A stretch of DNA of 64,000 nt from Amphibalanus amphitrite. Taxonomy: Eukaryota. The DNA lies in the NCBI RefSeq assembly GCF_019059575.1, contig NW_024881729.1:480406-544405 (forward strand), written 5' to 3'. How positions within the stretch are numbered: position 1 is the first letter of the stretch; each line of letters starts with the position of its first letter. A program made the translations under genes and the position numbers. A model generated the notes under the pieces. That model saw nothing but the letters and a program-made list of their open reading frames with translations. It was not told the DNA's origin and ran no database searches. Positions 1,683 through 50,700 of the stretch are shown here, piece after piece.

Positions 1683-4600
1683 CATATTTACGTCTGGACA
1701 ACGAGTTGCGTTGGAGAGGCCGGAAATAGTGGCGATTTCAGGACCGCAAGAATGGACCGTCATTGGAACGATTCTTTTTTAAACCGTGCACTGTCTTCGG
1801 CCGGAATTTAATAGTTACTACAAAATATTTTGTAATTACCTTTCCACCAAGAATGAATGCCATCAGGGCTAAATTTTTAACAGTATTGCATTTTGTCAAG
1901 AAGCATATAGTGCTGTTATATTGCAGTTTTAGCGCGTTTCACGGCGCGGTTGTTACAAAATATGAAGCGAATAAGCGTCAGTGTAATTCATCAACAGTGC
2001 CAGAAGTTAACTTGAGGGAAAGCTATGCTAATTGCTCTTGTCCATCCACTAAAATTTATTAAATATTTTGTTTTGTGTATTCCAAAAGGAGAGGGAACTA
2101 TTTCATTTGTGCCTTCATGTCAGAATTGAAGGTGGATCATTAAATTTTCAACGCAGTTTACAAACAAGCATTTGGTCTTTCTCGTATATAAGCAGTGGCT
2201 AAGAAAAGGTTGATCAATCCTGAAGTTCAGTCATCATACCTCAACTTGGCAGCAAGATCCCCCAAGGACAGAGGATATATTGTAAACCTGTCCTGTTAAT
2301 CAAAACATTTTTGTGCCTGCAAAGGCTTAAGTTATCTGTGGTGTGTTCGGAGTTAGGCTATATGACCGTTTTTGTTGTATGTTTATGTGGAGATTGAATA
2401 TAACTGTGACCCTGTGCTTGTTTGTATACTTACGGTCAAACAGGGAACAGCACATTCACATAACATACTCACCCACCTAGCACCTAACTCATAGCTGTAC
2501 CCTGCAGGATCTGTACTTGTTCACGTCTCGAGCATTAACAAAGCACTAAAGTAGCTTAGTAATCATTTCCCACATTTTCTGAGCATCTAACATGACATAC
2601 AGCAGTGCAGAGCAGCTTCAGAGAAGAAACACTTCAAATGCACAGACTCACACCAGCCACCCAATGAGCCAGTTCCTCAGTTGACTGTTTCCCTGGATGC
2701 AGCTTGGAAATGTGAGCTAACTTTTGGCAAGTTGAAGGTTAGCAGGTAAGATTGAGTTAGGGTGAGTACCTAGGTACCTATAACTGGGTGCTACTGCCAT
2801 GCAGGTCTTGGGTAGGCTGCAAATATGTGTGATGATTGAGGTTAGGTCAGCTGTCAGGTTAGTCAGGTTCAGGTACCTATGCTCATTGCTCAGGTCACAT
2901 TTTTATGGACATTTGGCAAATTAAAAAACTAACAATCTAATCTAAGCATACCCGACTAAACATACACAACTACTGACTATAGGAACTGAGCACCTACCTA
3001 CTTGTGCCTACATCTCATACCATGTCAAAGTAGAGTTCCTTGGTGGAAGATTACCCTCAGTACTTTTTATCCCAGCCCTGTGAAGAAAACTAATACTTCT
3101 AAGCTCTGAGTCACTGCTGGCCATCCACAGGAAGAAACGCTGAGACTGAGAGCTTTGCCATTGTATATTGGACCAATAATGACTATCACGAATGACTATG
3201 AACACATATGATCACATCGTTGCATGGATTGTCACATTGACAATTTTACTACAATCCTTTTTTCAAGAAATACAGTGATGATGATTAACATCAAAATCAA
3301 CATAAAGTGGATTTAGTGATCCAAGCTTTCTCCTCCAGTAGCAATGTAATGATTGCATGTTTCATTTGCCAGACACTGAGTACCTGATGCACATTACAAT
3401 CTGCATAGCATCTAAGCATAGTAAAACTGCCCAAGTCCATTCATTCTAGATTTTACCTTGATAGTTAGCACTAATTTATCTTGCTGTTGTAAGTTATCAT
3501 TCAATATTCATACCAATACATCAATATGCGCTCATCAGTCAACATTTTCTGGCATGATCCTGCTCAGGGTGCTCTTCAGTATTGCTCCAAGTTCTGCAAT
3601 ATTATAGCTTGTTTTTGGACAATAAGCTCTTTTAATTTTACTTTTTCTTGCTGATATATGAGCCCGATCAACTTGCGTTTATCAACCAAAATTTCATAAC
3701 TTGTTCAACTTGATATTGATATTGCTCAGTAGTCAGGACCTCTGTCAGCCTCCTGGATACTTCAGATTGTTTTCAGTCAACATGCTTCTTAAATATGATA
3801 TAATCAATCTTAAAGGATTCAAAACATCCAACAAAACGACGTACAAGAGCAAGAAAACCACCAGATAAACTAAAAAATGGCCTTGGAACAGAGCCAAGAC
3901 GTGCTGCTCCATTTGTTTGTTTACAATGATTGTAGTGCTGATGTATTTTTAGGACTCTGAACGTCGGCTTATAAAAATGAAACGTTTTTACAAAAGTTGT
4001 AAGGCAAGTAATATTTATCTGAAAGAACTAAAATATTCAAAAGCCAAACACTATGACATACATGAATCGGAACGAAAAAGTAACCCAAAAATCCAGCCTA
4101 ATCACCGGCTCCTAAAACTGCAACACAATCAGCACTTTTCCCCGCAACTCGTTGTCCAGACGTAAATATGCTTCACCGGCGTCCAACCTGAACCTAAATA
4201 CCACGGTGACCTAAATACCAAATGTAAATAACAACATGAAGAAACACGCAAAAATGTTTGCGCCAGTCCACGTAGCAGATGCGTAATACATGTAGAGTGA
4301 GTAGAAGGTATCTGCTACTAAATGAAGATATGGAGAAAGAGCGCATCTATTCAGTCCAGCATTATGCGGATAATGCTGGACTCGTCCCCAGCATTATGCG
4401 GTTCAATAGGAGCATCACCAGAAAGGCTCACCGAGCCAACTTCTCTCTTTCGTTTGCGCTTACAGTGCTTAAGTCAGAGATGATCGGTTATATTGGCCAG
4501 AGACTAGAGCGTCCGTTTAGAGAGGCCGATAAGGGCACGCTTAGTTAGCGAAGTTCCTGTGCCGTATGTATGCGGTGTGGTAGGCGGTAGCCACAATCTT

Positions 4601-11387: not shown

Positions 11388-14311
11388 ATGGTGCGCCTTC
11401 TGCAGCCATCGCCGCTGGCCGTTCTTCCACTGTTGCTGTCGCTGCTGACGTTAAGCCCAGGTTACGAGGTGACGGTGTTCGGTCCAGCCACCCTGTCTGA
11501 TCTGCTGCTACACCACGGCTCCGGCTCAGCCGCCGCGCTGACGGTGGCCTCGGCCCTGTCCCCATCGCGGTACATGTCCGTGGACAGGTCAGCCGGTCCA
11601 GACTGGGTCATACAGTGGCAGGATGACGAGGAGATCTCAGAGGATGGCGGAGCTGGAGAGAGTACAGCGCGGGGACAGGACGACCTGGTCAGCGGCTACC
11701 GTCTCCCGGAGCGTGGGTGGCCCTGGCCGGCAGGGGATGACCTAAGGCAGGTCAACAGTTTAGGATACCCAAACACACCACCGAAAGACGGCTTGTCGGC
11801 TCACCGTGTGGATAACCTCACATCATACATCACCTCGTTGACTGCACGTGACGCAGCCATCGTTGATACCGGCACGAAACATGACACGAACGGGACCGGC
11901 TTTAAGGAGGCTGTTCGAGACACGCTCGCCACGATTTTCGAGGAGATGCTGCGCCGTCCGAACGTCACAGAGGTCAGCACCGAGGCCACAGAGGTCACCG
12001 AAGTCACCAGTGTGGCGGAGACGGGGCTGGAGGCCCCTTACGAGGCCGGCTCGGAACCATTCCTGGAGGATCAGCTGGCCACCGCCTCCACCATTTTAGG
12101 GCCGTCAGACGACGGATCCCCACTGGGTCCGTGCAGTACCTGTGCCGACAGCCTCCAGTGGACCCCAATGCTCGGCTCCAGTCCTGGTCCGGGTGGTTCG
12201 GCGAAAGGTGACTTGGGCACCAGCGACTCTCAGTGGCTGGTCATCACAAAGACGGCCGACACGCACCCCATCTACGGCGACCCTGATCTGACGGCCGAAT
12301 CCAGTCAGGACGCGCTGGAATCAGTGAATGGACTCGAGCTCGGCGACTACGACTCGGCGTTTAGCTCCGACTCCGGGTGGTCGGCCGGAGACAACGAGTA
12401 CAGGTACGAAGACCAGACCGCAGCCAGCTCCATACCGAGGGCCGGCATAGTATCCCGGATGTCCCGCATCTGGAACGGCATGAGGAGGAGGATCCGCAGA
12501 CTGTTCCCCTCCTGGGAGTACCTCACGACATGGAGGACGCCCTGGTGGTACGAGCGACACGTCAGGCGAAACAGGAACAGACCCCATCGACGTCGCAAGA
12601 GACCAAGACCGTCATATGGAGCACCCAGGCCAAGGCCTTCGTACGGAGCTCCGAAACCCAAGCGAAAGCCTCAACCTTCATATGGACCACCAAAGTCTAA
12701 GCGAAGGCCCAGACCTTCGTATGGGCCTCCCAAGCCCAAACGAAAGCCAAGGCCATCATACGGGCCACCAAAGGCAAAACCAAAACCATCGTATGGACCA
12801 CCAAAAGCAAAACCGAAACCATCGCATGGGTCACCGAAGTCGAAGCCAAACTCTTCGTATGGACCTCCAAAGTCTAAGCCAAATGCATCGTATGGGCCAC
12901 CCAAGTCTAAACCAAACGCATCGTATGGGCCACCTAAATCCAAACCAAATGCTTCGTACGGACCACCGAAGTCAAAACCCAAGACATCTTATGGACCACC
13001 AAAGAGTAAACCCAAAGCATCATACGGACCACCGAAGTCTACGTCGAGCGCGTCTAACGGTGCTCCGAATTCCAAGCCAAGCTCTTCATACAACACTCCA
13101 AGCAGACCCAGTCAAACATATGGAGCTCCCAGGAAACGACCAAGCCAGATGTACGGTCCTCCCTACAACTCTCAGTTGCCGACTCTACGCGGGTCGCCGA
13201 ACCGTCGCGATGGGACACGGCCCTCCGAGCCCATAGACGTCCAGCCGTTTCCGACTACCTACACACCGCAGGTCTCCGGCTTCGGCGCCGTGAGCGAGGC
13301 AGCTCTAGACGCACACACCCTCGACCCGGTCACAGAAGTGGACTACGGCACGGCACCGGCCGAAACTGATACGCTGGACGAGTTTGACCATCCTCGCCGA
13401 CCCAATAGACCTCACAGACCTCACAGACCTCACGGACCTCACGGGCCTCACAGGCCACACAGGCCGGCCGAGCACCGGTTCCCGTCGTTCGACTGGCTCA
13501 GCGCTCCGTTCCGCGCCGCGTACGACTGGCAGATGGGTCTGCTAGGAGGCTTCCTCCGGCGCATGTCGACATTCCCGTCACTCAACTGGGGAGTTCCCTC
13601 CATTCGATTCCCACTTCTGCCAAGTGTTCTGAGGCGCGATGAGCGCTGGGATAGGACCAGAGCTGATGAGAGAGGTCAGGTGCTGCAATACACGGACTGG
13701 GGTGAGCCGGACTCGACGATCCTCCAGGACCGAGCCGGTCTGCCCGCCGGTACCGGCAGGTCGTCGGTGGTGGACGGCCTTCTCTCGGCGCTCGTTGTTC
13801 TTCCGTTCGCGCTGTTCGCGGCGGAGCGTGCCGTGGCCCTTGGAGAGGTGCTTGGTAACACCACCGCAAACCTCTGGGTGGTGGACGCGCTGACCCAGGA
13901 GGGAGGAGGTCAGGTGGCGGGCGCAGGATCCAGACTGCTCCGCGAGCTAGAGATCCTGACGGAACGCTGTACAGACGGCCTGACTGATGACGCTGAAGGA
14001 GCCAGCAGACAGCAGCAAGAACATGCCACCAACATCACCACCAAATATCTTGACCAAAGCGAAGCAAACGCTTCTGAAGACGCTGACCACCTTGCTGAAG
14101 GAAGTGGTGAAGAGGTTGCTGACGAGATTAGCCACCAGACCTGTCCCTCCGGCTCCAGCACCGTGGGTCACCTGTTGGGCACCTACCGCTCGCTGTCCGG
14201 CTCCGTCGCCGCCCTGCCCGATGACCTGACCTGCCGCCCGCTGGCGCTGTGTCACGAGCTGAGGGCCAGGGTCGACAGCCCAGCCGATATCGCCGCCGCC
14301 ATCGCCGTACT
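11388..14311 (+). CDS. Gene A exon 1: a secreted repetitive protein. It has a signal peptide, ~18 copies of (K/R)PxxSYGPPK(S/A)K undecapeptide repeats, an HRPHRPHGPHGPHRPHRP tract, and a C-terminal C-x5-C motif.
   Basis: An uninterrupted 975-codon ORF starts MVRLLQPSPLAVLPLLLSLLTLSPG. It ends at a perfect GTGAGT donor (14312-14317) overlapping the in-frame TGA; the exon ends in phase 2. Confidence 0.6.
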
Positions 14312-14652
14312 GTGAGTACCCCCGGAGATTGTTAACTAACCGTATAATGGGGCACTTCAATTTAAAATTAGCGTTTCAAAGAATTATTGCTAAATGTTAT
14401 TATGTAACTTTATGTGATAGGGCATTCATATATGTACTGCAAGCATTTATAAATTTTAACAATGAGGTATTTAAGTTTTAATAATAAACAAATTTTGTGT
14501 CGTTATCAATGTTATCATTTTCGGTGTTAGCCTGCCCTATACAATACTGGGAACAAAAGATATTTGTTTGGAAAGCTTGTTTACATATGCTTTAGCGGTT
14601 TTCCATCGCTAAATTACGTAGACCCTGTTCAGCTTATTTTACCGTTTTACAG

Positions 14653-28705: not shown

Positions 28706-31145
28706 CTAGCGCGGCCGCTGGACGGCCGACTCGGTCCCGGCCGCCTGGCCCAGTCCCACCAGGCCCTGGGCGGTGTTCAGCAGGCTGATGGGAGTGCGTC
28801 CGTCGGTGATGAGCGTGGACTGCAGGCCCAGACTCTGCAGCATGCGCACCTGGTGGTCGCCGCCAGCAGTGGCCATGGCCTTCAACGTCTCGGCGCCCAT
28901 CGCCGACACCATCTGCTGGAACTTCTCGATCTCGATGTTGGCCATCTCCTTGGAACGCGCGATCTCCAGCTGGTTGCTCTCCTCGGTGTACTTGAGCTCG
29001 GCCTCGCGCGCCGAGCGCAGCCGCTCCAGCTCCGACTCGGCCTCGATGTTGGCGGCGCGCGCCTTCAGGCCGGCCTGCTCCACGGCCGCCTCTCCCTCGA
29101 TGCGGGCCGCCTCGGCGCGGCTCTGCGCCTCGGCCTTGGCCTGACCGGTGCTCTCGATGGCCGCGCACGCCGTCTGCAGCTCGACGAGCTCCTTACGCGC
29201 CTGCTCCGCGGCCGCCTCGTCCTTAATCTTCTGCCGCTCGAGTCGGCCACGCGCCTCCTGTTCCGTGCGCTCGGCCTCGTGCTTGGCGGCCGCCTCCTGA
29301 GCGTTGGTGGTGATCTCGATGGCCAGCTGGACGCTCTTCTGGAGCGAGTCGCGCGTCCGCTGGTCCACCGGCTCCACACTCTGGATGTCGATCGAGGTGA
29401 CCACAAGGTTGTTCTGCGGAAACACAAACTGTTTGCGCACCTTGCCAGCGTCGTCCAGACCGAACACAGACTGCCGGATGATTTTGGCCGAGTTCTTGTG
29501 GAAGTCATCGAATGGTCGCTGCGCCACGGCGCCGCGCACACGAGACGCGATCGCCTTGCACGCGTCGCCCACAAAGTCAGGCACGCTGAAGATCTTGCAC
29601 GCATCCTCGGCAGTCTTGTTGCCGACATCAAAGTGCCAGTTGTAGGCAATCTGCAGCGAGAGACGCGCGTGGTCGGACGTCTCGACAGTGACAATATCAG
29701 TGCAGAAGTCGGGTCCGAGCAGCAGCGACAGCGCCCGGATCGTGTTGGGCTTCTTGGGCTTGCCACCGGACAGGGAGAGTTGCGTGAACTGTTCGTCCGG
29801 CTCCAGCATCACCAGGTCGGGGCCGAACACAACGCGCGACCGCTTCGCCTTGTAGTCGTAGACCTGAACGGCTGCGTTGTGCGGCACGCGGTAGGTGATG
29901 ACGCGGGTGCGGTCGCTCAACTCGTCATGGCTCTTGTTGGTCGCTGACCGTCTCAGCTCCCGGTAGCCGCCGCGGTCGGCCAGCGCGTCGGTACGCAGCA
30001 GCTCCACCACGCTGGCGGGCAGCTCCTTCTCCCACAGCTCCTCGTCCTGGGTGAGCATGTAGGTCTGTCCACAGACGGCGCGCACCTCGCCCGTGCGGTT
30101 GTTGCGCACGTAGATACCCTCGGTGCGGTCGAGCGGGATAGCCGTCTGCTGGACGACCACCTCCACCTCGATGGGCGGCACGAACTCCACGGGCCCGGTG
30201 ACCATCCAGCGGTCTCCGGGCCGGCGCGTCACCGGCGGCGTCACTGTGTTGTCAGTGAACGCCTCGCCGGCGCGCAGCACCAGCGCCTCGTTCTCCTGGA
30301 GGATGTAGTTGTCGCGGACGTCGTCTTCCAGCGTCTCACCGGGCTGCAGGAAGAACGACTTCTCACCGCGCACCAGCCGACGCTGGCCGAGCTGCGGCTT
30401 GCCGTCCGGCCCGACCGGGTCGCAGATGACGCAGTACTGCCGGCTGGTGAGGGTGGTCACCTCGCGTTCCTCCACCACCTCCTCGTACACGTCTGGGATG
30501 AACGTTTCCATATCGTCGAAGCGCACCAGCCACTCCTCGCCGTTCTTCCTGCGCACGCCGCGACTGTCGGTGAAGGTGCGAGTGGCGCGCACCAGAAGAG
30601 CCGTCTTCTCCGTCAGCACGTGAGCGTTCACCATCTTGGCCACCTCCTCGTAGACGCCGGGCATGTAGGCGCCGACTCTGGTCACCAGCCATTCCTCGCC
30701 GGCCACCCGCTTCTGGCCCTTCCAGTCGGTGGTTTCGAGTCGTGCCCGCAGTCGGAGCGCCTGGTTCGGCCCGATGATGATGGCCTTGATATCGGCCACC
30801 TCCTCGACCTCCGGACGCGGCACGTAGGTGCCCGGCCCGAACAGCCACTCATCGCCGGCGGAGCGCACCACCTCCCCCTCCTTGAACTCGCGCAGCGCGC
30901 GCAGGTGGAGCGCCTTGTTGGGCGGGACCACCTTCAGCGGCAGCACGGCCGAGCTGAGCTTCTCGCCCGGGTACAGCGGGAATGGGTCCTGGTGCAGCCG
31001 CACCTCCGTGTCGGCGTGCAGCAGGCGCGCCTGGCCGCTGGCGTCGCACACCACCTGACCGTCCTCGCCGCGCACCACCGGGTTCTCGACGACACAGTAG
31101 TGGCGCGGCGGCACCACCACCATGGCGTTCGGGCCGACGATGACC
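28706..31145 (-). CDS. MVP: Major vault protein (MVP), main 3' coding exon: R + [22 protein letters not shown] ... to the stop. The acceptor ctccag|GG lies at 31145/31146.
   Basis: The 805-aa ORF aligns end to end with vault MVP repeats and the shoulder/cap-helix region ([56 protein letters not shown]). Together with the upstream exon the phase-2 junction reconstitutes ...DNER|VIVGP, as in human MVP. Confidence 0.9.
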
Positions 31146-42274: not shown

Positions 42275-42989
42275 CTTGGCCTATTTGGTCTGTAACAAGA
42301 CAATATTGAACATGTTGTTATGCATTACAAAACAAGTGCAAATCCTGAGAGTTCTGTGAATTGCACAATTAGTTTTAGTAAAATGATTAGATATGGCTAA
42401 TTTAAATGTCATCACCATGCAACAGATAGAAGTTACAGGCAACATCAGAAGTTTCAATATTTTTGTTTCTGGTAGTCAATGTCCATATATCACGTTGGAG
42501 AGGAACAAACGTATGTCCCTTATTTTAAGCTCAATGAGATCACCGCTGAATGCCCTTATCGCGGCAGAATGATGGTTTATGATGCCAAATGAAAACTGGC
42601 GAGATGCCAAGGTAGCTGAAACATAACCAAATGAAATCCAACCCGACCCCCAAGTCCTTTTCACCCAACAAATTAAGTAATAGGTAAGGTTTGAATGAAT
42701 ATATGTAAGACAGGTGAAGAGCAGGTTTGGTAGAGACTTAAGATAAGGGAAGGTTAGGTTTGATAAGATAATGTCTGAGCTTAAGAAAATAAATTTTACC
42801 TGAAAAAATTAGAGCCCAACATCTCACCCAAAGATAAAAATTTGACATCACAGTCATCCCATTCAACAGTGGGACAGTAGGTATCATACATAGCCATCCA
42901 GCTGCGCCTGTGGTCAACCAACCCGCGACCTCATTACAAAGTTCAATATTTGTTTGACATCAAAAATCATCCTACCCTGCCCATTAAAG

Positions 42990-43462
42990 GGACCCTCCCA
43001 CCTTAACATTAGTTTTGAGTTGAGATAGCCAAGTTTGCGGCCAGGCTCAGAAACCACCATTTATCCTGGTCGCAACCCCCGCAGCTTTATGGTGTTCAAG
43101 AAATTTCTTCCCTTTACTTGCAGGGTGGGACCAGCGTGGTCCCTATCTCTTAACCATTACGGGAATCTGATGACGTCATCAGGCTTTCGAACGTCCGTTA
43201 AATGTTTGACTAAAACGTTTTGTAGCACGCGGTGGTATATGCTGCTTTGCGCGCAACAAATGCCGCACTTTCAAATAAAGTCGCTAGGAACAGCGGAGAT
43301 CCCAAAAAGTAAACAAAAGTATAAGTCTAATATCTTGAAAACCGGTGAATATTTTTCGATGAAATTTGGTAGATATGCGTTTTTGCTCTTTCTGAACCGA
43401 GCGACATCACTTTCATGCCAATTCATTAACTTTTTTGAAGGTGGGAGGGTCCCTTTAAGTAA
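42990..43462. mobile_element. A ~470 bp MITE with TIRs AGGGACCCTCCCACC, flanked by TTAA on both sides.
   Basis: The left junction is ccaTTAA|AGGGACCCTCCCACC and the right junction is GGTGGGAGGGTCCCT|TTAAgtaattg. It lies adjacent to the left end of the large transposon. Confidence 0.6.
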
Positions 43463-44204
43463 TTGCCAATAGAAAATGTGACCATTTATAATAAAAATTT
43501 ATGCTACACCAACATAATGAACGCTAATGTCACACTGCCGTGCAAAGGAAAAAAAGGGTGAGATCCTGTCTGGCCAAAAATTGATTTCACAGGAGGGACC
43601 AAAAGGTTGTCGCGACCAAAAATGAGTTATAACTTTAAAGTGCCACACGTCAGAATGACGATTTTGGTACCAAACAAAACGTCATGTTTCAATGTTTCTT
43701 CTGATACTAATATAATCGTGTAATGTTTTCTTAGATAAGCTTAAAATGCCTATCTTTTTTTTCCTTTGTAACTGGCTTGCGAAATTTCCAACAAGCGGTG
43801 TGGAAAAAAGCCGTCAGGTGATCAAGCGATTTCACGGCTTTTTGCCACGAACTATTAAACATTTGGCGGTGTGGAAGAAAAGGGTAGACGCGTAAATGAA
43901 TGAATGAATGAATGAATGTCTGGGTTTAACTAGTGTTTGACCTAGCTTAAGGGCGGGCGGTTGGTCTCATTAAGTTGATACTGGTAGGACGCGGACGTGG
44001 TAGACATCATATTCGTCCGACGAATAATACGCAATTAGTCTGCATGCCTAGATGGCTGCATATTGCATCCTAGGTTTGGGAAAATGCCATTTTATCATAG
44101 CTGATAGTCCGTAATTACCTACCTATTACATGTCTTAAACATTAACCACATTAAACCTTATACAGAATTAAACAAAATAGTTCGTCATTCCTGTATTACG
44201 GAAT

Positions 44205-44555
44205 CCTGCTAAAACATCAAACAGTCGACACGAATACAAACATTCAAACATTTCAGCCATTTTCCGTAGTATTGACGGCTATAAAACATCAAAACAGTCG
44301 ATACAAACAGTCGACACGAATACCTACAAACATTCAAACATTTCAGCCATTTTCCGTAGTATTGACGGCTACAAACATGAAAACAGTCGATACAAACAGT
44401 CGACACGAATACAAACATTCAAACATTTCAGCCATTTTCCGTAGTATTGACGGCTATAAAACATCAAAACAGTCGATACGACTACAAACTGAACACCACT
44501 TCAAACATTTCACTGGTCAGCTCAGCCATCTTTCGTGTTATTGACGGCTAGGCAG
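44205..44555. repeat. Subterminal tandem repeat: an ~85-bp unit (caaacatttcagccattttccgtagtattgacggctataaaacatcaaaacagtcgatac...) in about 4 copies.
   Basis: Direct repeats are visible in the sequence, immediately downstream of the transposase ORF's stop codon. Confidence 0.7.
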
Positions 44556-44559
44556 CAGC

Positions 44560-47500
44560 CTATCCCATCAGGTCACGGACGTTTGTCCCGTTGAGGGATA
44601 GCCAGAAGGCGGTCTTATGACCATCCATAAGAGGTGTTAGGTTGTTGATGATTTTGGCCAACTTTTCCTTGTTAACCCCCCTGGGAGTCGTTCGCCTCTC
44701 TGGCTGCTCACATGGAATAAAAGTTGTTTTGAAAAGGTCGTAAGCCGACCACTTTGGGTGCCCATGGACAACCTTCACGTACAGTCGGTCGTCGTCCCGC
44801 CGCACCTGAACGACCTTTATTTCCCGCAGGAGCGGTCGCTTCTCCTCATCAGCGAGACGCTTCAGCTTCGTAGCGCTCACCCCACTGCTGACATCGAAAA
44901 AATCTCCCGGCGCCATCACATGCACTGAGCCCGCCATCTCACATGCCACAACGTAGTCCCGAAAGTCTTGCACACGCACACTAGATTTTGAAAGTTTTTT
45001 GCTCACCACCTGGTGCACCGCATCAGCAGACATACTAGTATGTCCCTTCTCTAAAAACTTGACTGTGATGGTTTTGACTGCAAGATCGCTCCTGTTGACA
45101 CAATTTTGAAGAGCCGAGAGCAAGGTCCAGTTTTTGTTTTGGGCAGAGCAGTTATCTGCCCAGAAGGTGAACTGTTTCGTGTTGTGGTTCAGCTCCACGA
45201 ACTTTATGAATGTTGAAGCGACGTCTGGTGCATCTCGGCCAGACACGCCCTCGTGCCACAAGACGGACACAGCCCCCTTTCCTCCCAACGGCGCGAAAGT
45301 CTCGTTGTAAGTTACAAGTCGCGGGGTGAATACGCACACTTTGTGAGGGAGGATGGGAAGGAGAGCGACCCTCATCATGTCCACGGAAACAATCAGGTGC
45401 GACTCTGCTGACGCTGTGGTTTCGCGGTCTCGGGCGTACTCTGCCCTAGCCTGTTCGGCGCGATCGTGGTGGGCGGCGTGTTCCTGGCACGTGCTGCACG
45501 ACTCATGTTCAAAGCAAGTTTTCACGTGGTGGTCAAATGCAGTACATATCTCGCACTCTTCTTGGCCTAAGCGAGCGAACGACACGTTGGCACTTCGCAG
45601 CGCTTTGCGAAACCGCTCGTAAGAGCAGATCTTGCCCTTTTCCTCCACAAGCTGCTGGTACATCACAGCTGCGTTGAGGTCCGGTGCGAGATATCGGCGT
45701 CTGGGGGCGTGCAGGTAGCGGTAGTGCGGTGCCATCGGACGGTACCGCTCAATGTGCCGCTGCAGCTCGTCCTCGAGTCTGGCTGCCACCGGGTTTGCCG
45801 CGCGCCCCCGCCTGTCCTGCTTTGGGATGAGTCGTCCCACGGCAGATATGATCGGACCGTCATTGTTCGCTGCGAAGCCGAGGGTTGTGAGACAGAACTC
45901 CTTGCACACCCTTCGATCGACCTGTTCTCCAGCTACAGGGAGACGGTAGGCGATGATGCGCCGCTTGGCAGATGCGGTGTTGGTGAGTGGTGGGCTGTCA
46001 GTGACAATGGGAGTAATGTCTCGCACGTGAGTGGCGTACCACTGCATCCTAGCCTCCCTTGAAAGTGAATTGACGGCCTCGTTGATGGCCTGGCGTTGTT
46101 CTTCACTGAAGTGAGTGGCACAACCGAATGAGCACGTGCGATTGCTGCAGGCAGGAGGCATGGGACGGACTGCATGCTTCTGTTTAAAGCCCAGAATTTG
46201 GTGTTCCTGAGTACGAGCTCGTTTTTTTGCGCCCGTGTGACTGCCCACCGTTGTCGGACGAGGAGCATCGGATGCCCCATCTACTGAGGAAGAAGCCCCG
46301 TGGGTGCTAATCGAGGCAGCGTCAAGTCCATCTCCACCGCAGTCCATGGACCGTGGGTTCGGGTCGTCTGGATCGACATTTGCGGTGTGTGCTGTCGGAA
46401 AGCCTCCCCAGCTAGACGCATGAGCGGCGCTACGTGGGTGGGGCGGGGCCATAGGGGCCATGTCACTATCACCTGCTGCGCCGGTACCAGAGGGACCAGA
46501 GGAAGCAATCGATAGGTCAGCGAGGGGTACATCGTTGAATGACGACATGTCACTGCCGGACGTATCCAGGAGTCGCAGGAAATCAAAAGGTCCCGGATCA
46601 ACTAGGTCATTTATGTCAGTCAGACCAATCACGTCATGAGTCGCGACCTCTGTCGACACAGCCCAGGGGTCTTGCTCCCCGACGAAGGTCCCCTGCTCTG
46701 CGGCTGGGGTCCCGCCCTGCTCCGCGGCTGAGGTACCCTGCTCCGCGGCTGGAGTCTCGCCCTGCTCCACTGCAAAAGTCCCCTGCTCCGCGGTCGGGGT
46801 CCACTGCTCCGCGGCAGAGGTCCCCTGGCCACCGGACGGGGTCACGCCCTGCTCCGCGGCCCGCTCTCCAGCAAAGGTCCCCTGCTCCGCGGCAGAGGTC
46901 CCCTGGCCACCGGACGGGGTCACGCCCTGCTCCGCGGCCCGCTCTCCAGCAGAGGTCCCCTGCTCCGCGGCAGAGGTCCCCTGGCCACCGGACGGGGTCA
47001 CGCCCTGCTCCGCGGCCCGCTCTCCAGCAAAGGTCCCGTGCTCCGCGGCAGAGGTCCCCTGGCCACCGGACGGGGTCACGCCCTGCTCTGCGGCCCGCTC
47101 TCCAGCAGAGGTCCCCTGCTCGGCGGCAGAGGTCCCCTGGCCACCGGACGGGGTCACGCCCTGCTCCGCGGCCCGCTCCCCAGCAAAGGTCCCGTGCTCC
47201 GCGGCAGAGGTCCCCTGGCCACCGGACGGGGTCACGCCCTGCTCCGCGGCCCGCTCTCCAGCAGAGGTCCCCTGGCCACCGGACGGGGTCACGCCCTGCT
47301 CCGCGGCCCGCTCTCCAGCAGAGGTCCCCTGCTCCGCGGCAGAGGTCCCCTGGCCACCGGACGGGGTCACGCCCTGCTCCACGGCCCGCTCTCCAGCAGA
47401 GGTCCCGTGCTCCGCGGCAGAGGTCCCCTGGCCACTGGACGGGGTCACGCCCTGCTCCGCGGCCCGCTCTCCAGCAGAGGTCCCCTGCTCCGCGGCAGAG

Positions 47501-47721
47501 GTCCCCTGGCCACCGGACGGGGTCACGCCCTGCTCCACGGCCCGCTCTCCAGCAGAGGTCCCCTGCTCGGCGGCAGAGGTCCCCTGGCCACCGGACGGGG
47601 TCACGCCCTGCTCCGCGGCCGGGTCGCAGCTGCCCGCCGGGGAGAGCACCTGTACAAAAAAAGTATTTTTTAATCGATATCCATGACAAGTCAAATCATT
47701 GATTGTACGAAATATCTGCAA
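44560..47721 (-). CDS. Transposase-like protein of 1053 aa. The N-terminal ~330 aa is a tandem AEQGVTPSGGQGTSAAEQGTSAGERA repeat. The C-terminal ~550 aa has Cys/His clusters and DDE-like blocks (LIVSVDMM..., FTFWADNCSAQNKNW).
   Basis: This is the longest ORF in the window. It lies inside a TIR-bounded element. The D-N-C-S-A-Q-N-K-N motif resembles the second-Asp block of hAT/MULE-type transposases. The superfamily cannot be assigned without a search. Confidence 0.5.
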   Translation of the reverse strand: MQIFRTINDLTCHGYRLKNTFFVQVLSPAGSCDPAAEQGVTPSGGQGTSAAEQGTSAGERAVEQGVTPSGGQGTSAAEQGTSAGERAAEQGVTPSSGQGTSAAEHGTSAGERAVEQGVTPSGGQGTSAAEQGTSAGERAAEQGVTPSGGQGTSAGERAAEQGVTPSGGQGTSAAEHGTFAGERAAEQGVTPSGGQGTSAAEQGTSAGERAAEQGVTPSGGQGTSAAEHGTFAGERAAEQGVTPSGGQGTSAAEQGTSAGERAAEQGVTPSGGQGTSAAEQGTFAGERAAEQGVTPSGGQGTSAAEQWTPTAEQGTFAVEQGETPAAEQGTSAAEQGGTPAAEQGTFVGEQDPWAVSTEVATHDVIGLTDINDLVDPGPFDFLRLLDTSGSDMSSFNDVPLADLSIASSGPSGTGAAGDSDMAPMAPPHPRSAAHASSWGGFPTAHTANVDPDDPNPRSMDCGGDGLDAASISTHGASSSVDGASDAPRPTTVGSHTGAKKRARTQEHQILGFKQKHAVRPMPPACSNRTCSFGCATHFSEEQRQAINEAVNSLSREARMQWYATHVRDITPIVTDSPPLTNTASAKRRIIAYRLPVAGEQVDRRVCKEFCLTTLGFAANNDGPIISAVGRLIPKQDRRGRAANPVAARLEDELQRHIERYRPMAPHYRYLHAPRRRYLAPDLNAAVMYQQLVEEKGKICSYERFRKALRSANVSFARLGQEECEICTAFDHHVKTCFEHESCSTCQEHAAHHDRAEQARAEYARDRETTASAESHLIVSVDMMRVALLPILPHKVCVFTPRLVTYNETFAPLGGKGAVSVLWHEGVSGRDAPDVASTFIKFVELNHNTKQFTFWADNCSAQNKNWTLLSALQNCVNRSDLAVKTITVKFLEKGHTSMSADAVHQVVSKKLSKSSVRVQDFRDYVVACEMAGSVHVMAPGDFFDVSSGVSATKLKRLADEEKRPLLREIKVVQVRRDDDRLYVKVVHGHPKWSAYDLFKTTFIPCEQPERRTTPRGVNKEKLAKIINNLTPLMDGHKTAFWLSLNGTNVRDLMG
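46680..47640. repeat. A 78-bp minisatellite of ~12 units, some 57-bp variants. It encodes the Ala/Glu/Gln/Gly-rich N-terminal repeat of the transposase-like ORF.
   Basis: The unit gtcacgccctgctccgcggcccgctctccagcagaggtcccctgctccgcggcagaggtcccctggccaccggacgggg is periodic. All six frames are open across it. Confidence 0.85.
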
Positions 47722-50700
47722 GCATTATGAAGGAAACGAAAAATCCGACACTCCCATAACCAACTGAAGGAGCGGGTCTTAATTTGCTATTATTTTTCTA
47801 CCGTAGTGTCTTGAGTTGCCAAAAATATGCCCAAACACTTAATGGAATATTACTCGTAGATTGTGTTGATGTAATGAACAGCATAAGAATCAAAATTTGA
47901 TGCGATTTATCGCTTTATTAAGCTTTAATGGATAAATCTCCAATGCCATTTTACATCAGTATCTTTAACCGCTTTTGCTGCGAGCCTTCATGCAGCTTAC
48001 AAGTTACAGGTTGATAATGTCACGAACAATTAGCTCTCTCACCTGACTCAGGGCTGCTGAATCAAGGACGGGACAGGAACTCGAACTGCTTCCGGCAAGA
48101 TCGGTGAGGTTGTCAGACACGGGATTAGATGACCTTTGCCGTTCACGTACAATCGCCAGCGGCATATCATCATCCGGAATTTCTGCACCGAACACATTTT
48201 TTTTTTTGTCAGTCTCCTGAACCACTACGCATTGCCATTTTGTCATTAGCATAGCATAAGCGACATATCATTTTTTCACACGTAACCTTCTCAAAGGCGC
48301 TGCAGCTCTGCATTATTTTTATACATTCCATGGTGCTCTACACAATTGAATTGGCTACTCCTGTAACCCATATCAGCTAAAATTTGAGGAGTTGGCATGC
48401 CTTTCATATCGGGTCAATGTCCCTTACCTTCCACAAGGCTCTGGCGAGTCTTGGAGCTCTTGGCCACCGCTCCAAACCACTCCCGGCCTCCGTGCCTCAT
48501 TCGCACCCGCGACCCAACAGCGATTTCTTCCTCACACTTCAGTGCATTCAATGGCGAGTAATGTGACTCACCAGCGGTCTTATCTTCCCAAATCACTCGA
48601 ACGTGTACGACTCCTCTCCTTCGGATGAAATCGGAGCCAGTCGGCGCTTCCGAAATCTTCTTGCGTTTTTTATCACACTCAGCGGATGAGATTGATTTGC
48701 GTTTTTTACCCATATTTGTAAAAAGGCAGGGATAAAGGCACCAACTCGGGGAGAATTGCTTCGCTTTACGTTTGATTAGCGCGCCAGACGTCTGCCAGCC
48801 GCCCGCGCGTGCTGTTTACTACGCGTAGTACGGCGATGTGTAAGGAGGATTTGGTGGGTTTTTAAATTGGCGGGCTAATTGTCAGTAAGCTTTTGCGACC
48901 TAACATTATGAAAAATGCTTGTGCAATCGTGCTCACAAACTGTAGTGCTATTTCATTGTCTGAATATCCAAATATGCCCTTAAAAACTGTCAGTCAATTA
49001 AAACTCGCCAAATACTCTTCACCACAGGCACTCTCAGTCCCGGAGCACGCTTTATCTCACCCTTTTTTTCCATTGCATCGCCAGCACTCAAGATCATGGA
49101 AAAAAAGGGTGAGATTTCACGGCTTTTTTCCACACGACCAAAACCCAATTTTGTGTGGCATTCCAACTCACGGCTTAATGCCAACTTTCAAATTTAGATT
49201 TTCGGCATGAATTTTTATTCAATAATGCTTATGAACTACACCATTGAATTCGCCTCGAAAAGAGCTTTCATTTGATATAAATATAAAAAAATGTATTAAA
49301 ATCACCTCACCCTTTTTTTCCTTTGCACGGCAGCACTGGTGGAGCAACAGCCAGTCACTGTATCTTCAGCCTTAGGTGTACATCAAACTAGAACAATCAA
49401 AATTACGCAGATCATCAGAAAAGTAGGTTACTAGACACTAACACAGAGGCTACTGTTAAGTCAATAGTTCATCCCAAAAATATAGGCATCAACCTATATA
49501 GAAACTTAGCATATTCTGATAACTGGTAGTATATTAAGTGGGACTTTAAAGTCATTTTACCTTTTACTCAGGTTGATAAGTTAATGGTATACTTTTCAGA
49601 GTCTCAAGAGTAAATGTATTTTTTATTTAAATGATGGCAAATATTTTGACCCCCATTGAGGAGCCTTTTTCAATGCAAAATTACATGGAATAATAAGTTT
49701 TGGTAGTATATTATCCAGGATATAGGCAAAGCAAGCACAGCTAGCCAGCCAGTCTGTTGTTTTGGGAAATTATCATTAGTCCATTGTTCAATGTGAAATT
49801 ATCAGTATGACCTGCCAGACCCAGCCCAAATACACTTTTATCTATTATTACTTGGTAAATGTCAAGATAAAGTCCTAAGCAGATTTCATTGATATATTTT
49901 TCATATTTTCTAAATTATTTGACATCCTGAATCCAAAAATGATACTTGTATGTCTCGCAAATAAAAGAAAATCATTCAAACCTGACCTAACCTTACCTAC
50001 TTACCTATAAGTACCTACCAACCTAAAACCTACCTACCTACAACCTAACCTAAAACCTAAAATGTTTGCTGTTACATATTTGTATCAACAGCGTCACAAC
50101 TGTAGTTAGGACCTAAACTTGACATATACCTTATTATTTATGGCAGAGGTATGGTATTATGGCAGGCAGAGGTTTGATTATTTATTTATTATGACAGAGC
50201 ATTATTTATGGCAAGCACTCATGACTCAAGCAGCCAAGAAGCAGCATGAGCCAGTAGGTATCACCAAGCTGTAAGTGGAAGGCTTGTGATGTTGATGCAT
50301 GCATTAACACATTCATCCATACATAGCCCTATCCCTTAATTCATAAACTCAACTAATGTAGCATGCCACTTCCACGTCTCAACAACAGGGCAGTGTTTCA
50401 CTGGACACTGGTACCACACTGCTATCACATTTTGTAAATGTATGGGGTCAGTGTGGTAGTGTTGGATAAACAACTTTGTTGATGTCTCCATGGAAGACAA
50501 ATTTGACATGTGATAGCAGCGCGCGCAGCGCCGGCAAAGGCTGTAAGAGGGCCCCAGTGCGATATTTCAGCTCCAAAATAACACACTGATCCCGACCAGT
50601 CAGTGGAATGCCATACACAAGTCAGTCGAAAGTAGGTACCTCCTTGCACTTCCACATGCGCAGGGCTCCCTAGCGCTAGTTTCTTTATCGTTACATGGAA

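Follow-up and report, generated by a model that had tools for sequence, protein, structure and literature searches.

A DNA transposon of the barnacle Amphibalanus amphitrite with terminal inverted repeats, a DUF7869-type transposase and an in-frame minisatellite: most likely a Sola-type element

The element, its ends and its relatives

The DNA analysed here is a stretch of 64,000 nucleotides (64 kb, hereafter the window, from whose first letter all positions are counted) of contig NW_024881729.1 of the barnacle Amphibalanus amphitrite (positions 480,406 to 544,405 of the forward strand). Within it an element of 5,799 bp, spanning 43535-49333, carries on its minus strand a gene for a transposase-like protein. 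The element begins and ends with a 28-nt terminal inverted repeat (CTGCCGTGCAAAGGAAAAAAAGGGTGAG), of which the left copy (43535-43562, plus strand) sits at the 3' end of the gene and the right copy (49306-49333, minus strand), at the 5' end of the gene, is 100% complementary to the left. A preliminary description of the locus had put these termini at 43533 and 49306-49335, and they turned out to be real once both were shifted by 2 bp. Beyond the two termini no further match to CTGCCGTGCAAAGGAAAAAAAGGGTGAG was found in the window with up to 3 mismatches allowed, and 100 dinucleotide-preserving shuffles of the window gave 0 terminus matches.

A motif that had been said to recur subterminally at both ends, GATTTCACGGCTTTTT, was found at 43828 and 49113, on the plus strand both times. 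The related motif GGAAAAAA[AG]SSS[GT][GA]A has 7 matches in the whole window, every one of them no more than 310 bp from an end of the element. The left subterminal repeats (43802-43846) consist of an inverted pair of GGAAAAAAGCCGT(C/G)A, at 43802-43816 (plus) and 43832-43846 (minus), while those on the right (49057-49131) are three copies of GGAAAAAA(A/G)SSSTGA at 49057-49071 (minus), 49098-49112 (plus) and 49117-49131 (minus), in a region where the inverted pairs I3, I4, I8 and I9 were also detected. A short (GAAT)n microsatellite was seen at 43898-43918 within the left subterminal region. A little way 3' of the stop codon lies the 85-bp tandem array that the preliminary description had placed there, at 44218-44479 (Tandem Repeats Finder, TRF: 3.0 copies, 92% matches, score 467).

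That these termini delimit a mobile element was a claim which the comparison with other assemblies has upheld, as five related elements (L001, L002, L003, L005 and L006) all finish at the same tip, CTGCCGT (5/5). Related elements also have the subterminal motifs and a conserved first exon in common, and the length of these five is 5.7-5.8 kb. One of them, L001 (protein P0001, 70% amino acid identity; ends at 1476 and at the contig end, 7255), is ~96% identical to the A. amphitrite element at the termini and ~68% in the interior. Both ends were likewise seen in L002 (protein P0002; 1126 and 6848) and in L003 (protein P0006, 43% amino acid identity; 7689 and 13365), the latter having many subterminal CAGGAAGAAAGCCGTA repeats, and one end was seen in L006 (protein P0004) and in L005 (protein P0003), whose contig begins 2 bp ahead of a tip. 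The contigs of L001 and L005 break at the element tips, suggesting that these are multicopy repeats. In L003 (7675-7695) a second tip in inverted orientation, ACGGCAG, stands head to head with the left tip CTGCCGT, from which it is separated on the outer side by 4 bp (agcg); a footprint, a neighbouring insertion or mere coincidence might account for this.

Near-identical copies were found in two further sets. In the first, L002, L128 and L129 are 99.9-100% identical; positions 1-1125 of L002 and L128 are identical as well, and the right flanks of the two diverge after 6848 and 6413, respectively. Since the two, which come from two samples, have the same left flank and different right flanks, flank pairing in these short-read assemblies is unreliable, and the mismatch is probably a chimeric short-read assembly across a 5.7-kb repeat. 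The second set, the P0011 lineage (34% protein identity), comes from high-coverage long-read contigs, in which four ~98% identical copies (L004, L130, L131 and L132) fix the ends of the element, homology stopping at the tips. The A. amphitrite element is almost certainly a genuine transposon with terminal inverted repeats as its boundaries. We read it as intact, of the cut-and-paste type and probably autonomous.

The flanks of the element carry a putative target-site duplication, CACA on the left (43531-43534) and CACT on the right (49334-49337). In the P0011 lineage the flanks were read with the tips CTGCCCTG...CAGGGCAG, and perfect 4-bp duplications were found in L130 (ACTT on both sides) and in L131 (AGTT on both sides). 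The flanks of L004, ACAG and ACTG, agree at 3/4 positions, though only on a reading of its ends in which the element lacks its terminal C and G, and in L132 the right end is deleted. As two independent perfect 4-mers are very unlikely to arise by chance, we take the target duplication in this group to be 4 bp, and a duplication of that length is probable in the A. amphitrite copy. A 2-bp duplication (CA/CA here, CT and GT in the relatives) was considered and dropped; with the tip set to CTGCC the duplications read as 4 bp.

Gene structure and transposase

The gene was previously described as a minus-strand open reading frame (ORF) of 1,053 codons, which is present at 44560-47721. Splice signals on the minus strand predict a gene of three exons. 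Exon 1 (48428-48713) would start with the ATG at 48713 and contribute 95 codons plus 1 nt, with the donor GAAG/GTAAGG in phase 1. Exon 2 (48043-48182; 140 nt) would have the acceptor gtgcAG/AAATTCC, phase 1, and the donor CAG/GTGAGA, phase 0, and an alternative acceptor at 48224 would likewise be in frame. Exon 3 (44560-47649; 1,029 codons plus stop), entered through the acceptor tttttttgtacAG/GTGCTC in phase 0, codes for the linker with the repeats, for the Cys-rich region and for the catalytic core. The predicted spliced product has 1,171 residues and zero internal stops; this exact protein was not found in the protein collection. The predicted acceptor at 47649 implies that the first ~24 codons of the long ORF are probably intron, and therefore that the repeat sits in a linker behind a conserved N-terminal domain and not at the start of the protein. 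This qualifies the earlier reading, which had the ORF begin with the repeat.

Two small ORFs upstream had been proposed as possible 5' exons, and the proposal was supported: both contain a predicted exon, the phases are compatible, and the exon-1 peptide is conserved in four diverged elements, with an identity of 73% in L001, 52% in L002, 49% in L005 and 40% in L003 and with 17 residues invariant. The nucleotide identity of the same four is far below that of the peptide. The product of exon 1 is basic at its N-terminus and contains a small domain that is conserved. It gave no match in Pfam, and a single-sequence model was all-beta and of low confidence (predicted local distance difference test, pLDDT, 55). 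For the exon-2 peptide, conservation in L001, L002 and L005 is weak.

A Pfam search with the protein gave a single match, to DUF7869 (PF25273), at residues 854-916 (score 29.7 bits, gathering cut-off 26, E 6e-7), and the domain is carried by the relatives too. Whether a known transposase family matches, which the preliminary description had left to such a hidden Markov model search, is thereby answered in part: the match is above the gathering threshold, and the domain is one of unknown function. Sequence searches of the PDB, with the single sequence and with a profile, gave no match. A database search with the last 545 residues returned 34 relatives, with identities of up to 70%, and a search with a profile of 18 sequences returned 22,204 representative clusters at E<=1e-3, 3,999 of them at E<=1e-30. 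These relatives are essentially all eukaryotic; among them is a protein from the anchovy Engraulis encrasicolus that is annotated as an 'uncharacterized protein'. A profile search of the prokaryote genome collection gave 1 match, in a contig of a metagenome-assembled genome of Sedimenticola sp. (JBEVXT010000587.1, 4.9 kb; 2248-3417, 24% identity), which is probably eukaryotic host DNA that was binned into that assembly. No relatives of the family were found in the viral contig collection, a metagenome scan with a degenerate terminus pattern gave chance bacterial matches only, and neither DUF7869 nor the QNKN motif was mentioned in the literature searched.

In an AlphaFold model (pLDDT 82) the C-terminal half of the protein adopts a compact RNase H-like topology. 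Its nearest folds are those of retroviral integrases and of the Mos1 mariner transposase, with Foldseek E-values that are all above 1e-3. The catalytic core (44989-45399, minus strand; ORF residues ~775-911) contains three aspartates, D781 (45379-45381), D856 (45154-45156) and D900 (45022-45024), which correspond to D274, D349 and D393 of the model and are invariant across 18 sequences, down to 22% identity. Also invariant in the alignment are three Cys near its start and a CxxC...H; the aspartates are those of VSVDMM, of ADNCSAQNKN and of MSADAVH, the last with the histidine of its D..H. The SVDMM and FWADNCSAQNKNW blocks pointed out in the preliminary description are thus present and hold invariant aspartates of the family. 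In the model the three invariant aspartates sit where such a fold is expected to have its acidic residues, one on b1, one behind b4 and one on the helix that follows b5, so that D781, D856 and D900 probably form a compact catalytic DDD triad with spacings of 75 and 44 residues. Against L001, L002 and L005 the core has a non-synonymous divergence (dN) of 0.22-0.29 and a saturated synonymous divergence (dS), which indicates long-term purifying selection on it. Although the only Pfam match is to a domain of unknown function, the fold, the conservation and the anatomy of the element settle the identity of the protein as a transposase, which the first reading of the ORF had suggested and which the RNase H-like model, the three invariant aspartates and the family of 22,204 clusters bear out.

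Mechanism and superfamily affiliation

Put together, these features suggest a mechanism that we regard, as a whole, as quite probable. A single three-exon gene would encode a transposase of ~1,171 residues in four parts. At the N-terminus there would be a small conserved domain, with a basic stretch that resembles a nuclear-localisation signal, and behind it a disordered linker built from a 78-bp minisatellite, a Cys-rich, helical region and a compact RNase H-like catalytic domain with the probable D-D-D triad. The protein would bind the 28-bp termini and, as putative sites, subterminal repeats of the GGAAAAAA(G)SSCGT type, pair the two ends and cut at the CTGCC...GGCAG tips. Insertion into staggered cuts 4 bp apart would then give rise to the 4-bp target duplication.

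The Sola superfamily has been defined by DDD transposases and 4-bp target-site duplications, with a size of 2-9 kb and inverted repeats of at least 11 bp, and comprises three distinct groups, Sola1, Sola2 and Sola3. The A. amphitrite element resembles it in having terminal inverted repeats, a size within that range, one large transposase with an inferred DDD-type triad, and a probable 4-bp duplication, which is perfect in its relatives L130 and L131. It differs in its termini, which have CTGCC tips. The comparison of sequences was confined to Sola2 and included two Sola2 transposases from a published supplement, DFa-2 and PPa-1, both from dictyostelids. The order CxxC-D-D-D is the same in both families, and the spacing of the aspartates is 87/43 in Sola2 DFa-2 and 75/44 here. 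Profile-profile alignments were made with hhalign and judged by column-shuffle controls, since shuffled templates score ~135 and the raw E-values are therefore meaningless. The core of the family scored 153.7 against Sola2 profiles, compared with 133-145 for 30 column shuffles, and 148.5 against four Sola2 sequences, compared with 45 shuffles with a mean of 135.7, a standard deviation of 2.3 and a maximum of 142.6 (z ~5); an HIV integrase control scored 132.8, which is the baseline. In this weak match the motifs FW(A/S)D... and then (G)H(T/G)(K)S..D..H are in register, FWADNCSAQNKN being aligned with FWSDGAKHFKS and EKGHTSMSADAVH with QYHGKSDVDRHF, and in global mode the CxxC and the first aspartate fall into register too, so that the CxxC and all three aspartates are aligned. 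The probable DDD triad, the likely 4-bp duplication and the weak in-register match to Sola2 make Sola the most likely affiliation of the element, which would belong to that superfamily or to a close sister of it, within a clade that Pfam labels DUF7869. For Sola membership itself the sequence evidence is weak but coherent, and we lean slightly towards it.

Several points weigh against this account of the element. A single copy is visible in the window, where no second copy or empty site was found, and its flanks CACA/CACT agree at 3/4 positions, not 4/4. Among the relatives, L003 has no duplication (AGCG/AAAA), and the flanks of the L002 family are unreliable, the assemblies looking chimeric. 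The splicing is a prediction from sequence, and it is the modelled fold that points to the third catalytic residue. A HMMER search with the family profile found nothing above shuffles in the Sola2 sequences, which in turn gave no match to DUF7869.

The last two results also speak for the best-placed alternative, that the DUF7869 clade is a separate, unnamed superfamily of DDD/E transposases whose resemblance to Sola2 comes only from a common RNase H ancestry and a convergent 4-bp staggered cut. In agreement with this, single Sola2 sequences gave hhalign scores at baseline, the duplications of Sola2 are AT-rich (AWWT) while those found here (ACTT, AGTT, CACA) are not of that type, Pfam keeps the domain as one of unknown function, and the literature search found no mention of DUF7869. 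On the other hand, the profile-profile score tops all 30 and all 45 shuffles, with the CxxC and the three aspartates in register, whereas the HIV integrase control stays at baseline. A DDD triad with a 4-bp duplication is moreover the definition of Sola; a family of this size would probably not be missing from Repbase, whose criterion for a superfamily is PSI-BLAST convergence at E<0.005. The Sola groups reportedly have extremely low identity to one another, a point that also tells against separation. We therefore regard a superfamily of its own as unlikely, and Sola or a close sister as the better placement.

Four other known systems were compared. Tc1/mariner (ITm) transposases and retroviral integrases are the best structural neighbours of the core, with which they share a compact RNase H-like fold where the helix of the third acidic residue follows b5 and no insertion domain separates the two; they differ in giving no sequence or Pfam match, and the protein is without HHCC, GPY or other integrase motifs. 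Tc1/mariner was rejected as its TA 2-bp duplication does not agree with the flanks CACA, ACTT and AGTT, and as neither Pfam nor the PDB gave a sequence match. ISL2EU and the other PHIS groups (PIF-Harbinger, Spy, Nuwa, Pangu) resemble the element in their short duplications and short inverted termini. ISL2EU, in which the duplications are AT, the termini GG and the ORFs two in number, one for a THAP transposase and one for a YqaJ protein, was ruled out, the element having CTGCC tips, a single gene, no THAP or YqaJ domains and no Pfam match of the DDE_Tnp_4 type. The transposase of Dada elements is likewise large, is encoded with introns and has Cys clusters as well as a DxxH after the second aspartate, which is reminiscent of D900-x-x-H903 here, and its catalytic E lies ~176 residues beyond the second D. 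Dada elements have no terminal inverted repeats, have 6-7-bp duplications and insert into snRNA or tRNA genes; Dada was ruled out by the clear inverted termini and by the lack of small-RNA genes in the flanks, Rfam and tRNA searches of the window, L001, L002 and L005 having given no matches. The family motif was not found in the Dada supplementary alignments. GingerRoot/IS3EU and Ginger resemble the element in their integrase-like catalytic fold; GingerRoot/IS3EU, which has a 6-bp duplication, inverted repeats of 100-150 bp and TA...TA or TG...CA tips, was ruled out by the 28-bp inverted repeat, the CTGCC tip and the lack of an rve-type Pfam match.

The coding minisatellite and the surroundings of the element

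The linker that joins the N-terminal domain to the conserved core is encoded by an in-frame minisatellite (46686-47616, minus strand), delimited by TRF and by listing it unit by unit. From 47616 to 46858 it consists of nine 78-bp units and one 57-bp unit, followed by a partial eleventh, after which degenerate 21-bp heptad repeats that encode AEQGTSA-like peptides continue down to ~46686; the earlier estimate of ~12 copies and ~330 residues was close. For the 78-bp array, which TRF places at 46798-47620, matches are 95-96% and indels are absent. The 78-bp units encode AEQGVTPSGGQGTSAAEQGTSAGERA; they differ little from one another, mostly by non-synonymous changes (A/V, G/S, Q/H, S/F). Three further open frames span the GC-rich 78-bp repeat, at 46539-47702 (plus), 46634-47689 (minus) and 47038-47673 (plus). 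Such long ORFs in other frames or on the other strand are by-products of the repeat and not genes.

The preliminary description had considered a transposase with such a minisatellite unusual. This was not borne out, as in every lineage examined the same linker holds a different, unrelated repeat: 78-bp units in ~10 copies in this element, 75 bp x 1.9 in L001, arrays of 30, 54 and 84 bp in L002, an unrelated peptide repeat of its own in each of P0003 and P0006, and 30 bp x 6.9 in L004 (9992-10198), where DDAVVDDHPT-like units are encoded. In the four ~98% identical copies of the P0011 family, which lie in one genome, the 30-bp coding repeat is present 5.9 (L132), 6.9 (L004), 7.9 (L130) and 8.9 (L131) times, and L128 is 435 bp shorter than L002, a difference that the repeat accounts for. 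As each lineage has its own repeat and the copy number changes among near-identical copies, the repeat is a trait of the family, one that outpaces point substitution. GC-rich low-complexity sequence is prone to slippage, and the simplest account of the minisatellite is neutral slippage in a disordered linker where it is selectively tolerated; it is not a special adaptation of this copy.

It was also considered that selection might maintain the repeat as a functional module, such as an adjustable disordered spacer on which the activity or the self-association of the transposase would depend. The independent origin of unrelated repeats in the same linker of every lineage examined would agree with such a role, as would the fact that all of them stay in frame and that the copy number differs among copies otherwise 98-100% identical. 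Nevertheless, the units of different lineages are unrelated in sequence, the differences between units of this copy are mostly non-synonymous, one unit has a 21-bp deletion, and out-of-frame variants would just drop out of the active pool, so that we hold a selected module to be rather improbable, less likely still than a separate superfamily. Two bolder readings, that the DUF7869 transposases (22,204 clusters, CTGCC tips, 4-bp duplications) form a group at the level of a superfamily that lacks a formal description, and that their obligatory repeat-prone linker is an evolvable module for tuning activity, strike us as doubtful, about as doubtful as a separate superfamily. It is very improbable that the locus has lost its mobility, as a relic or as a host gene domesticated from a transposase with its inverted repeats retained, for which one copy in 64 kb, the absence of the exact protein from the protein collection and the single differing position in the flanking 4-mers could be cited, since the termini are perfect (28/28), the frame of 1,171 codons is intact with all invariant residues kept, binding-site-like subterminal repeats are kept at both ends, and sister lineages have 98-100% identical copies at different loci, while domesticated transposase genes normally lose their termini.

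With the element read as an intact transposon, a very large family known as a domain of unknown function gains an anatomy, that is, termini, subterminal sites, exons, a probable triad and a length of duplication, and thousands of 'uncharacterised proteins' in animal genomes could become annotated transposases. To our knowledge no active element has been characterised in barnacles, and the intact copy with its perfect ends is a candidate for one. The hypervariable coding minisatellite could serve to mark individual copies of the transposon for tracing, and linker repeats of this kind can mislead gene predictors.

The surroundings of the element contain an inverted pair (42984-43014 and 43428-43458; 31 nt, 87% complementary, arms 413 bp apart) which ends 77 bp left of the element and looks like a small miniature inverted-repeat transposable element (MITE). 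Farther away, an intronless ORF of 805 residues with Vault and MVP-shoulder domains (28706-31123, minus strand) is 100% identical to the A. amphitrite major vault protein-like isoform X6, which marks this barnacle as the host, and an ORF of 975 residues (11388-14315, plus strand) has a Pfam Mucin-like domain and is unrelated to the element.

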